This document shows, in pieces, positions 19,758 to 50,484 of a stretch of 64,000 bases of DNA; position 1 is the first letter of the stretch; each line of letters begins with the position of its first letter. Where the stretch lies: assembly GCA_965285935.1 (NCBI GenBank), contig OZ260663.1, forward strand, positions 18,042,001-18,106,000, in the 5' to 3' direction. Origin of the DNA: Ophelia neglecta. Its lineage: Eukaryota. The notes under the pieces are model-generated. The model was not told the origin of the DNA. It was given only the letters and a program-made list of their open reading frames with translations, and searched no databases. A program made the position numbers and the translations under genes.

Positions 19758-22700
19758 TTATTTGTTTCTAACCGTCTGCTGTCTGTCCATGTACTCCAAA
19801 GGTAAAGCGTGGAGGTATTTGTACTGGTTCTAAAAATATAAGATTCTCCTTAAATAAAGGCTTTGCATTATAGGCGAAACCTGTCTTACAATAATATCTC
19901 AAATATGAAGAGATAAAAGACCCTTCAGTTTCCTCAAATAACATGTATGAACCGTTTTATTTCGCCATAAACAGTAACAAGTACCATATCTCCGACAAAC
20001 TGGTGTCTGTGTAGAGCGACAGCCCTGACAGCCAAGAAGACGTCCACCTCGCTGTCTGCTTTCATCTTCTCTAACAGGTAGTAGGCCGCACACACCAATC
20101 CACTACGAGTAGCGCCGTCTCTAAACAAATAGTTAATCAAACAAATGACAGATAAAGAAACCACAGTTAGTCTTGCTCTCAATGCTTCCAGCGATTTATT
20201 TTGACAGTAGGAAGGCCTTAAACCGACGCATATCATAAAACACATTAATACGAATTTCACTGTGCATTTGTTCCATGTTGAGTCAGTACTGGATACTTCA
20301 GATCCCCGCTGAACTACCTCCCTACATCCTGAGATTTTACTGCTCTGAATTGATTCAGATTAGCAAATTATCTGACATTGAACTAAACGATTTAGTCTGG
20401 ATATACCTCGTTGGATATAGCCAATTACACCACCGGGGAGGTATACAAATCAGTGAGGAGAGCGAAAAAAGTCTTGTAACTAATAATTAAAATGTTTGCA
20501 TTCATCGCTGACCTGCACTGGATGACTACTTTTCCATCAGGTTCGTTCTGTTGACATTCTTCAACAACCTCCAATAGATCCAGCATGTCACCATTGTCCG
20601 GCAGGTTTTGTTCGGATGTCCACTTATCAAAAAACATCAAACTGACTACCAATGGCACTTCCCTTGTCTGATAAAATAAAAAATATCAATAACTAACTTA
20701 GCAATGGCATTTGAGGCATAATCTATAAGTATCATGAAACCAGAAACGCGTTTCCTACCCGGGATGTAAGAGACACTGTGAACTGGAGTTTCTGTAAGGA
20801 TTTCTTTGTGTATTGGGTATCAATTGACTTGATCTCCAGGGCTCCAAATGAAAGGACTCTGTCCTTTTCGTCAGGCCAAAAGCAAGGGCAATCCTAAAGA
20901 ACTCGTACATGTATACAATCAGTATTTTCAAAGTTAGGGTTATTGTTGTTGCATTGATGGGCATTTCTATTGCACCTATTTCTCGCTTTCCGGAAAACTT
21001 TACAGGTGGAAATGTATTCTGTGTCAATGCGTCCTTTGGTAGGTGAAGCCCTACAACAAAACGAAGAGAATACCTGGAAGCAAACCTCTGAAGGCGGGTC
21101 TGGTTTATCTAGAACGACTACTGTGTGACACTTCTGTTCGTATACCATTCTCCAGAAATCTACAACCGTGTCAGACAACGGCAGCTGGGTCACCACGAAA
21201 GCCTTTTCCTTAAAGTAGCTCTGTGACGGATATACACACATAATCATGCATTTTTGCATACACAAATCAATAGTCTTATGTTGTATACAAGCTGTTCATC
21301 CAGATAATACCCTATCCACAAAATGGATAGGGTATGTACGCATACAACACACTAGTACACAGGGCAGGATCACGAATTATTCATTATTTATCAACTAGTT
21401 ATTTTGAGACACCTACATCAACCATGATTGCATTAATATAGTCGGTTCTTTCCTTGAAGTTCCCAGACAGATACACACGGTGATCATCGTCTAAAAGGCA
21501 ACATGTATTTAGGTAATAATGTAAAAACTAAGTTGTCCACAATTTAGACATCATACCTATATCTTTATTTTATATTTTTTCCGAAAAGCAATCCTGAGCT
21601 ATCTTAAAAATGCATGATCTGCTGATATTTTTGCTGCTGGTTCTGACCTGGTACCATATCATGGTTTCTGTTCTTTTTGGCATCCTTGGTCTGCAGTCCT
21701 GTTTGGATACCAGGTGCCTTCTTTCCTTTAAATCTGACTAAAGTCTGCATAGTCATGTACATGAAATATCAAACATATTTATTATTTTAACTGCTCTCAC
21801 CATGGGTTTCGACAAAGGGGTTTTCTAGCTATCAGAAACCCTGTGAATTGGTGACTATATGGATGGAATATTTGTTCAATCATTATTAGCTCATTATATA
21901 AAGTATGTTTTAGGCATGTTTGAAATAAAACGCCAGTGCTAGCGAACCTGAAACTGCTCTTCCATGGGGATTTCATTGCTGTATTCATTCCCACTTATTA
22001 AGGCTCCGTACCTCTCCGAGAAAAGGGTTAATGGTATGGCTGTATCCCCCTGCTGGTGTGCTTCTAGTAGAGCATTGTGCAAAAATACATATTGTGGCTG
22101 AAATAACAGATGTCAGTTTGTCGCTTATGTTTTTAAGTATTAATATTTAGCAATAAATTTTTATTTGTCTGGCTTGCATCCATTCCGGGTAATATTGTAT
22201 ATTTGCATAATTAACGCTCGTTATCTCCGGATGGCGACCACGGCAGAGCGAGACAGGGTTAAAACAGATAAATGATGGCTGTTTCGTCCATTCGTAATAG
22301 CAAAAACGTCGCCTGCCGCTCAGTATTTCCTTTTTTTTCCGAACGGTCAAATGGCCATCATTTGTTTATGTCTTAAAACCTTTTTGGACAGGCATCCGCC
22401 ATTAAACACACACTCTACCAGCGTTTGTATCATTTTCATCCTCTCTCCCCTCATACGTGTTAACTGCTTCACTACGTTCACTTTTCCCTCATGTTTCATC
22501 TGATCCATCAAAAAATCAAACGCGATAAAAGTACCAGACCGTCCAACACCAGCACTGGAAAACAAATGTCTATAGATAAAAGATAAACTGGTTAGTTGTG
22601 TGTATTTAGAGAGATCTTACATATACGGAAGAACATTTCGAAATAAAGGGGCTTCCGAATTAAAGAATCAAGAGCTTGATTTGTAAATACCTTAGCACTA

Positions 22701-49600: not shown

Positions 49601-50484
49601 AAATTAGACATAAAACCAAAACCCCACAAATTGTTTATTATTCAGTGTATTTTATATACAGCAAACAGATAAATTATCTGCAATCAATGGCGATTTTTTC
49701 TTAATAAACATATTGCAATACCAGTGATGGAATTGAGAGATTTGTTCACACAGCGCTTAAATATGGGGAGCGATATGGTGCCAGTATTCGATTTTTAGTA
49801 GGCGGTGTAGTAAACAGCCTATTTTCTCTGCGAAACAATTATGTTGTATGTGACAAATTTTATATTTGAACGTTTGTCAAAAGTAAATTCAATGTTATTT
49901 CGGAGTTCATATTGAATGTTTTCCAGGAATATTGGGGGAAATGACTTCATTGGCCTTAAAAATTCAAACATATTAAGTCATCCTCCTCACCTATTTTACA
50001 CCCTGGTCCTGATCTCCGTATGCCGGCCTCAGTTGGGTTGTCAAATGGACACTCTTCCCCTTGTAGACAATTACCGGACGTCTGGTTACAGCCATTGGTA
50101 CACGGACATGGAAATACGCATCCTGGATCATTTCCGAACCGGCATAATTCTGTCAGAAATCATGATACAAGGATTGGGTTAACCGCTAAAAGTCTACCTT
50201 AAGGTTTAGTCTGATCCAATGTGTAGACTGCAATGGGGTCTCGAAAAAGGCTGTTATATTACAATGCTGAAATTCCTCATTACGTCAAGAACGTTAAATC
50301 CGTATATAAGAAGTTCTCTGATTAAACTACATGCATATTAATTACATATAGTTCAGCAAACGTCTTACTCAGATATATAAATATAGAAGACACATTCTTT
50401 GAGATAATACCTACCGTTTTGTGCACCAGCGAAACACAAGACATGTATTCCTACAAATATCACAGATAATTTGAATGCCAACAT
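37629..50484 (-). CDS. Receptor-type protein tyrosine phosphatase, gene B: signal peptide - EGF-like - F-type lectin - EGF-like x2 - FN3 - TM - Pro-rich juxtamembrane - PTP D1 - PTP D2
   Basis: Exons: 50415-50484 (MLAFKLSVIFVGIHVLCFAGAQN), 49991-50149, 46314-46544, 45765-45989, 45270-45362, 44991-45161, 44463-44807 (FN3: SITLKW...LVEGLRPSMTYYFQM), 43330-43444 (TM), two short exons, 42277-42545. The PTP exons have the same boundaries as gene A ([30 protein letters not shown]2 VLCRDGAHRSG). The last exon is GQYKYLHTLAMDYLKKNERYGNFK*, stop at 37629-37631. Confidence 0.91.
38309..38602 (-). mobile_element. tRNA-derived SINE (apparently full length) in an intron of gene B
   Basis: The minus-strand head has an A box (TGGCCGAGTGG) and a B-box-like GATCGAATCCC. 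The central CCGGTGTCAGTATAATGTGAC resembles the Meta-SINE core (from memory). It ends in a (CAA)n tail. Confidence 0.8.
47441..48530. mobile_element. ~1.1-kb segment present in gene B intron but absent from the homologous gene C intron; probable transposon
   Basis: B/C intron homology breaks after TCTAGTCTGA (47440 vs 63493) and resumes near 48540 vs 63505. The segment carries repeated GTTACCATGG(C/T)AA palindromic motifs (~47702, 48067, 48246). Confidence 0.55.

Follow-up and report, generated by a model that had tools for sequence, protein, structure and literature searches.

Receptor-type protein tyrosine phosphatases (RPTPs) with a galactose-binding or lectin-like ectodomain have been described in snails of the genus Biomphalaria. 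In B. sudanica, 17 MEGF/galactose-binding-domain RPTPs are reported, mostly clustered, three of them in a resistance locus (PMC12297450). In B. glabrata, the LG5R locus encodes ‘scavenger class F-like’ receptors with a fucolectin signature, divided into subgroup 1B, with a small cytosolic part, and subgroup 1C, with two protein tyrosine phosphatase (PTP) domains, for which the main text proposes glycan recognition with direct phosphatase signaling (PMC13712769). According to these sources, the related Biomphalaria clusters map to parasite resistance (PMC12297450, PMC13712769). Here, we analyze a 64,000-nucleotide (nt) window of the Ophelia neglecta genome (GCA_965285935.1, contig OZ260663.1, positions 18,042,001 to 18,106,000) with two genes, A (19758..32555) and B (37629..50484), that join an F-type-lectin-fold ectodomain to tandem PTP domains (D1 and D2), and a third, C (59765..62672), in which a B-type ectodomain is followed by a different transmembrane (TM) segment and a tyrosine-motif tail without PTP domains. 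All genes discussed lie on the minus strand, coordinates are those of the window, and exons were read from the sequence and joined by coordinates. The lectin–PTP fusion is a real gene model of a kind already known; the new element is the cluster-wide pairing of the two receptor types, with exchange of ectodomains.

Genes A and B have the layout of an RPTP (signal peptide, one TM segment, tandem PTP domains), and it corresponds to that of the subgroup 1C and SudRes1 receptors, with the EGF label standing for a cysteine pattern; the likeness drawn here is one of layout. The SudRes1 RPTPs resemble A and B in combining EGF and galactose-binding-like domains, a TM segment and tandem PTP domains, and resemble the cluster described here in their variable ectodomains and copy number, SudRes1 being linked to parasite resistance; they differ in their multiple EGF repeats and antistasin neighbors, where the Ophelia locus has few Cys-rich modules, FN3 and interleaved tyrosine-tail twins (PMC12297450). 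The LG5R 1B and 1C receptors likewise share a signal peptide, an EGF-type region, a galactose-binding/fucolectin signature, one TM segment and clustering; the main text gives four 1C genes, against 21 PTP genes in part of one cluster here, and FN3 sets the present receptors apart (PMC13712769). That main text does not contain the terms ITAM and ITIM (immunoreceptor tyrosine-based activation and inhibitory motif) and uses ‘paired’ for reads only; it thus gives no account of receptor pairing, tail motifs or exchange of ectodomains (PMC13712769). Along the same lines, we found no description of PTP-versus-tyrosine-tail pairing in open-access main texts.

Our best reading is that these genes are paired receptors built by ectodomain exchange, with the built-in phosphatase as the off arm. 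We lean, somewhat better than evenly, towards A and B, as single-pass receptors, supplying the off arm of an array of paired receptors, with tyrosine-tail genes such as C as its on arm. Comparison of the window with itself uncovered a third ectodomain copy at 60605-62858, overlooked in the preliminary description of this stretch, that belongs to gene C. The ectodomains of C and B are 83–96% identical in exons and 76–90% in introns (nt); the shared tract, 44457..46758 in B against 60605-62858, is 84% identical including introns and stops 6 nt inside the intron that precedes the TM exon. Past this point, the TM exon of C (60386..60491) is only 56% identical (nt) to that of B (43330..43444), and its tail consists of two exons ending in a stop (59765..60186). 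Gene A shares a tract (26565..32901, in pieces of 88–93%) with a tail gene near 17.93 Mb of the same contig; it ends 78 nt before the TM exon (26361..26487). In both genes, the boundary of the shared tract thus falls within the intron preceding the TM exon (26565 in A, 44457 in B), and the tracts shared with tail twins take in introns and 5' flank (85–95%).

The same arrangement recurs throughout the surrounding cluster. Searching the 762 Mb genome with the tail exon gave 19 matches among 29 candidates, all on the window contig at 16.6–18.4 Mb; with the lectin exon, the best 150 of 322 candidates were scored and all matched, and with the D1 exon there were 289 candidates, the best 150 of which were scored. 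We took 800 kb around matches from a 2.4 Mb interval, for 864 kb of cluster in all, in which exon mapping found at least 43 genes: 21 of PTP type, 20 of tail type and 2 unassigned. This count is anchored on the first lectin exon; genes without it, as well as orphan tail exons, fall outside the count. An ectodomain tree of 40 genes (all but the two unassigned and one without a second lectin exon) interleaves PTP and tail types: 12 label changes are required, where shuffled labels average 13.9. A PTP-only ectodomain clade is rejected by the approximately unbiased (AU) test (p = 5.5e-44). Linked genes with similar ectodomains and different endodomains characterize paired receptors; here, 36 of the 40 genes have an opposite-type lectin twin with at least 85% nt identity, and both types occur in 6 of 8 ectodomain clades.

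Ectodomain exchange or conversion, a second mark of paired receptors, is indicated by the AU test, a discordant tail tree, a chimera and the tract ends. Apart from one chimeric gene and the A pair that it splits, the PTP tree agrees with the lectin clades. The tail tree departs from them: 12 close tails are spread over four clades, and 40 of 153 tail pairs are at least 90% alike yet fall in different lectin clades (examples 61–68% alike). The chimera, at ~17911000-17926000 of the window contig, joins a lectin ectodomain of A type (91% to A) to FN3, TM and PTP parts of B type (93% to B); its switch point lies earlier, close to the first of the Cys-rich exons that follow the lectin. Two other histories were considered and rejected. 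Duplication of one ancestral PTP-plus-tail pair, as sole cause, predicts two ectodomain clades, which the tree rejects; independent truncation of PTP genes is at odds with tails that are homologous across clades.

The tail has four conserved tyrosines: TY[DE]T (TYDT in gene C), a Tyr with Asn two places on (IYxN), YAGL and YEEI, the last two arranged in gene C as YAGL-x5-YEEI. Conservation is near complete, with TY[DE]T and the exon-final Tyr in 19/19 tails and YAG[LFH] and YEEI in 19/20 each, and all four motifs persist between tails as distant as 53% nt. Two A-clade tails have a further YEEI-x9-YxxI.

Under the paired-receptor reading, signaling would proceed as follows. (i) Recognition: the variable loops would give each ectodomain clade a surface ligand of its own, be it a glycan or a protein, though probably not plain fucose. 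(ii) Activation: clustering of tail receptors by ligand would let a Src-family kinase phosphorylate the four conserved tyrosines, on which SH2 proteins would dock. Such docking is familiar for YxN with Grb2, YEEI with the Src SH2 domain and tandem YAGL/YEEI with a Syk-like kinase. (iii) Damping: attracted by the same ligand, the twin PTP receptor would use D1 to remove phosphate from the tail sites, while D2 would serve as a regulatory pseudophosphatase. (iv) Renewal: ectodomains and endodomains would repeatedly be re-coupled as cassettes by gene conversion or unequal recombination within the introns close to the TM exon. Such a system would likely serve non-self recognition.

The phosphatase domains are broadly consistent with these roles. 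D1 (21948..24797 in A, 40261..42136 in B) has the WPD Asp, the CX5R signature and the Q-loop Gln in both genes. Across the 21 PTP genes of the cluster, AGVGRSG and IQTL/PQY are present in every D1 domain, and the WPD loop reads WPD in 18 and WLD in 2, with one unrecovered. The closest PDB relatives of the D1 exon are PTPRS and LAR. D2 (19758..21744 in A, 37629..39989 in B) keeps C-x5-R, as C-RDGAT-R in A and C-RDGAH-R in B, with KWTSEQ in place of WPD in both; no D2 of the cluster has WPD, and one D2 exon had no PDB match. Between clades, the ratio of nonsynonymous to synonymous substitution (dN/dS) is 0.15 for D1 and 0.29 for D2, and within clades it is 0.36 for D1; on these ratios, D1 is under purifying selection. 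D1 is probably active, if perhaps kinetically altered, and D2 is probably a regulatory pseudophosphatase.

Several observations weigh against the paired-receptor reading. KNRY in the phosphotyrosine loop and the WPD-x-G hinge are part of the classical PTP consensus, and WPDHG is present in the PDB relatives matched by the D1 exon; all 21 cluster D1 domains read KNRF and none KNRY, and none has WPD-x-G, the Gly two places after the Asp being absent. These departures may reduce D1 activity; a literature search for KNRF-type changes found no paper on PTP1B Y46F. In 15 of the 20 tails, gene C included, YAGL and YEEI are spaced by 5, one short of the canonical ITAM, Yxx[L/I]x6-12Yxx[L/I], as given in PMC13358205. 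The trees are unrooted and silent on the direction of exchange, and some gene pairs are 99.8–100% identical and could be assembly duplicates. Pairing is well supported as genome anatomy; its functional role is proposed from the genome sequence. Moreover, CD45 and RPTP-alpha activate Src kinases by removing a C-terminal phosphate, so a PTP member need not be the off arm.

This last point leads to an unlikely but coherent alternative, in which the two types would cooperate: the PTP receptor would strip the inhibitory C-terminal phosphate from a Src-family kinase and so activate it, with the tail twin as substrate and adaptor, or YAGL would recruit SHP2 and both types would damp signaling. Such a pair draws on the same genomic evidence and would suit a tail whose spacing is not that of an ITAM. 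It would also suit a D2 signature that opens with C-RDG, as in scallop model P0257 and CD45 D2. (P0257 was itself rejected as a lectin–PTP protein, its N-terminus being unmatched by the lectin profile.) Against cooperation, one tail cassette repeatedly re-coupled to several ectodomains is the pattern of opposing paired receptors, as set out in PMC13358205, and at the position two before the YAGL Tyr there is a His, not the I/V/L/S of an ITIM.

The variability of the ectodomain bears both on ligand recognition and on a neutral origin of the array. Within clades, five lectin loops have 3.28 extra residues per column against 0.85 in the rest (permutation p = 1e-4), and dN/dS is 0.97 in loops and 0.36 in the lectin core. 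The pooled loop ratio of ~1 fits relaxed constraint as well as diversifying selection, and a loop ratio above 1, obtained from non-independent pairs, is confined to clade A (3.27) and clade T (1.17); both points count among those that weigh against our preferred reading, as does a stop in an automatically cut exon in 5/21 PTP and 4/20 tail genes. It is conceivable, if quite improbable, that the array is a by-product of tandem instability, in which cassettes are shuffled neutrally and the tail genes are decoys or drifting, with no paired signaling. The stops (9 of 41 typed genes), the orphan tail exons and half genes that occur in the cluster, the loop ratio near 1 and the tail-exon dN/dS of 0.51–0.65 would all follow. 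Neutral shuffling does not account for the persistence of the four tail motifs down to 53% nt, for near 1:1 numbers of the two types with both in 6/8 clades, or for purifying selection on D1.

The ligand question turns on the lectin domain, whose fold is F-type by sequence match. PF22633 scores 32.9, 33.1 and 31.0 bits on the first lectin exon of A, B and C (cut-off 27.8), so the F-type lectin profile match whose absence the preliminary description had set as a refutation is present in all three genes; the second lectin exon has no Pfam match in any of them. For both lectin halves, the best PDB matches are F-type lectins: 3cqo (E 1e-8, 2.9e-8, 1.5e-6), 1k12, 3le0 and 2j22, the 1.5e-6 match being that of the second exon of A (29361..29591). 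A protein search with the second exon of B (45765..45989) returned nothing among 77 candidates, and the predicted fold of the first lectin exon alone, a half domain, had a predicted local distance difference test score of 51.5 and was not used.

According to PMC5712786, the F-type fucose motif is HX24RXDX4(R/K), based on His52, Arg79 and Arg86 of AAA, and the calcium motif is h2DGx, with x = N, D or S; F-type lectins tolerate loop insertions and deletions, and motif deviations may mean another specificity or lost sugar binding (PMC5712786). The calcium-site core AVDG is kept in A, B and C, followed by E, E and L, respectively, rather than N/D/S. In the first lectin exon of A (29832..30056), a Tyr aligns to His52 and R-K-D opens a preserved R-x-D-x4-R loop. 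B (first lectin exon, 46314..46544) and C keep the His and both Arg, lack the Asp (Asp81), and have 11 residues between the two Arg. Among the 42 cluster lectin domains, none has the full fucose motif, even with the H-to-R distance left free; 18, B and C included, have the His-Arg-Arg triad; 6, A included, have R-x-D-x4-R, all with Tyr for His. The loop between the Arg is 2, 6, 9, 10 or 11 residues long, and the vicinal Cys pair is absent from these domains. Like AAA (1k12) and MsaFBP32 (3cqo), the Ophelia domains show whole-domain similarity, the AVDG core, the Cys pattern and variation confined to loops; in contrast to them, they are membrane-bound, single, and incomplete for the fucose motif in 42/42 cases.

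These counts bear on the preliminary description, in which A and B were stand-alone sensors, fucosylated glycans binding the lectin and switching D1 directly. The F-type fold, the AVDG core, the triad in 18 of 42 domains and the same idea put forward for Biomphalaria 1B/1C in the main text of PMC13712769 speak for such sensors. The missing full motif, the exclusive pairing of R-x-D-x4-R with Tyr, the variable inter-Arg loop and the absent Cys pair speak against them, as do the tail twins, which fucose sensing leaves unexplained, and we regard it as improbable. Fucose binding is doubtful because the full motif occurs in 0/42 domains, A lacking the His and B having an extended loop; as a ligand, fucose is unsupported, least of all for A. 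A glycan ligand is plausible, and for B and C the residues make sugar binding possible. A ‘fucolectin’ label on such receptors thus does not imply fucose binding. Of the preliminary interpretation as a whole, the architecture, the competent-looking D1 and the pseudophosphatase-like D2 stand; the reading changes in that such receptors are already described, fucose is unsupported and the genes are half of a system that includes tail twins.

Turning to paired receptors elsewhere, those of vertebrates, as described in PMC13358205, are also linked genes with near-identical ectodomains maintained by gene conversion and with different endodomains. There, the inhibitory member recruits SHP-1/2 by ITIMs and the activating member uses DAP12 (PMC13358205); here, PTP domains are built into one member and tyrosine motifs into the other, the opposing role being proposed. 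Vertebrate pairs use Ig or C-type lectin folds (PMC13358205), against the F-type lectin fold here. The Botryllus Fester family and FcoR, as described in PMC12582321, are likewise an invertebrate cluster of diverse receptors with tyrosine motifs and intergenic recombination; they differ in being of the Ig superfamily, in carrying ITIM or hemITAM on co-receptors and in having no receptor PTP (PMC12582321). The Ophelia array may be an invertebrate pair of its own kind, with an inhibitory member that carries a PTP instead of an ITIM, an activating member with a four-tyrosine tail, and loop-variable lectin cassettes swapped at the pre-TM intron across hundreds of genes; we put this forward tentatively, at a little under even odds.

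Single gene models from other invertebrates have parts of this architecture. Coral model P0069 (Acropora digitifera) has lectin-fold, F5/8C and FN3 domains, a TM segment and two PTP domains, with a different ectodomain order; its D1 is 45% identical to that of B and has KNRY and WPDKG, a likeness that does not imply descent. Oyster model P0061 (Saccostrea cucullata) has lectin-fold and EGF domains, a TM segment and a short Tyr-containing tail. The best 150 matches of a lectin profile search (1 of 14 rows in the profile alignment being a wrong exon) were all tandem lectin proteins with multiple matches, none with a PTP domain, and a D1 protein search gave 3 matches among 238 candidates. Among 254 proteins gathered, P0069 is the only one with a PTP domain, which is not an estimate of prevalence. 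The expectation that similar architectures exist in other invertebrates as uncharacterized models is borne out by the coral model and falls short in the word ‘uncharacterized’, as such receptors are published for Biomphalaria (PMC12297450, PMC13712769). Being known, the fusion alone merits little. More weight falls on the cluster-wide pairing, which points to a possible way for invertebrates to balance recognition signals without recruiting SHP through ITIMs and bears directly on the Biomphalaria LG5R and SudRes1 resistance loci; if true, it would offer a mechanism for snail resistance loci in which both receptor types occur.

The gene models themselves largely bear out the preliminary description, which had reported two complete genes joining EGF-like, F-type lectin and, in B, FN3 ectodomains to tandem PTP domains. 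Gene A has 25 exons and 1034 amino acids (aa; ATG 32555, stop 19758), encoding in order a signal peptide, a Cys-rich module, the F-type-lectin-fold domain, two Cys-rich modules (the second short), the TM segment, a juxtamembrane part, D1 and D2, without FN3. Gene B has 26 exons and 1155 aa (ATG 50484, stop 37629) and the same layout plus FN3. Both spliced frames are stop-free, and each has a hydrophobic N-terminal stretch and one TM segment. All 25 introns of B are GT-AG; A has 23 GT-AG introns and one GC donor at 25608, a position that is GT in three paralogues and has an in-frame GT alternative at 25590. Gene C has eight exons in the window, its first two lying beyond (64895-65050 and 65321-65389, extended coordinates); its signal-peptide exon and 5' flank are tandemly duplicated upstream (extended window 64869-70362).

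A Pfam scan of 20 single exons from A, B and C matched PF00102 in 9/9 PTP exons scanned, 8 above cut-off. No Pfam EGF match rose above cut-off in the three Cys-rich exon types, so the ‘EGF-like’ label rests on the cysteine pattern; FN3, in B only (44463..44807), scored 20.2 bits against a cut-off of 25. Of the ectodomain labels in the preliminary description, F-type lectin is therefore upheld, EGF stands as a Cys pattern, and FN3 falls below threshold. Re-reading of spliced A and B reproduced the D1 motifs, Q-loop and KNRF as quoted, and D2 CX5R with KWTSEQ for WPD; the contrast drawn with vertebrate RPTP ectodomains, which use Ig, FN3, MAM or carbonic-anhydrase modules, also holds. A single mRNA for lectin and PTP exons is inferred from the genome. 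A merger of two separate genes was rejected: the lectin, TM and PTP exons leave neither space nor a stop between them, and their order recurs in 21 paralogues. Reads of three runs from one sample over 37000-51000 cover introns and exons alike and show no splice joints, so they are uninformative on expression of B.

Two introns hold repeats. Within an intron of A lies a 333-bp inverted repeat at 97% identity (27875-28207 / 28351-28683), probably a young foldback element or miniature inverted-repeat transposable element, and a weaker inverted match (28936-29065 vs 29228-29357) adjoins the end of a lectin exon. An intron of B contains a very high-copy element (38316-38610; contig depth up to ~500,000) that looks like a short interspersed element, with what we take to be a MetaSINE-type core.

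Related arrays occur elsewhere in the genome. On contig C7, 320 kb was analyzed: 4 PTP genes and 5 genes without PTP, their lectins related, are mixed within 200 kb, and in the other 120 kb no such gene has a PTP; the C7 tails do not match the tail on the window contig. Several lectin and D1 matches on C16 have scores identical to those at 90.4–91.1 Mb of C7, and C16 may be an alternative haplotype or a duplicate. The window contig has many D1-exon matches at 95–113 Mb and 5.4–6.9 Mb, with no lectin match there among the best 150 scored; these arrays perhaps represent a larger RPTP expansion with other ectodomains.

Elsewhere in the window, two tandem minus-strand genes (10503-10468 plus 9047-8947, with the second copy at 15238-15138) read, when spliced, C-G-G-TGA-G-Y and C-G-K-TGA-G-Y. 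We take them to belong to a SelW/Rdx-like family, and they are probably selenoproteins, judging from these motifs; Pfam gave no match on five fragments, and no selenocysteine insertion sequence (SECIS) element reached the Rfam gathering score. Rfam and ARAGORN reported nothing within the window. A dispersed repeat of ~185 bp is found at five places (7543-7733, 9327-9499, 13256-13438, 18956-19041 and 56039-56226), and tandem repeats lie at 52016-52537 and 33907-34143.

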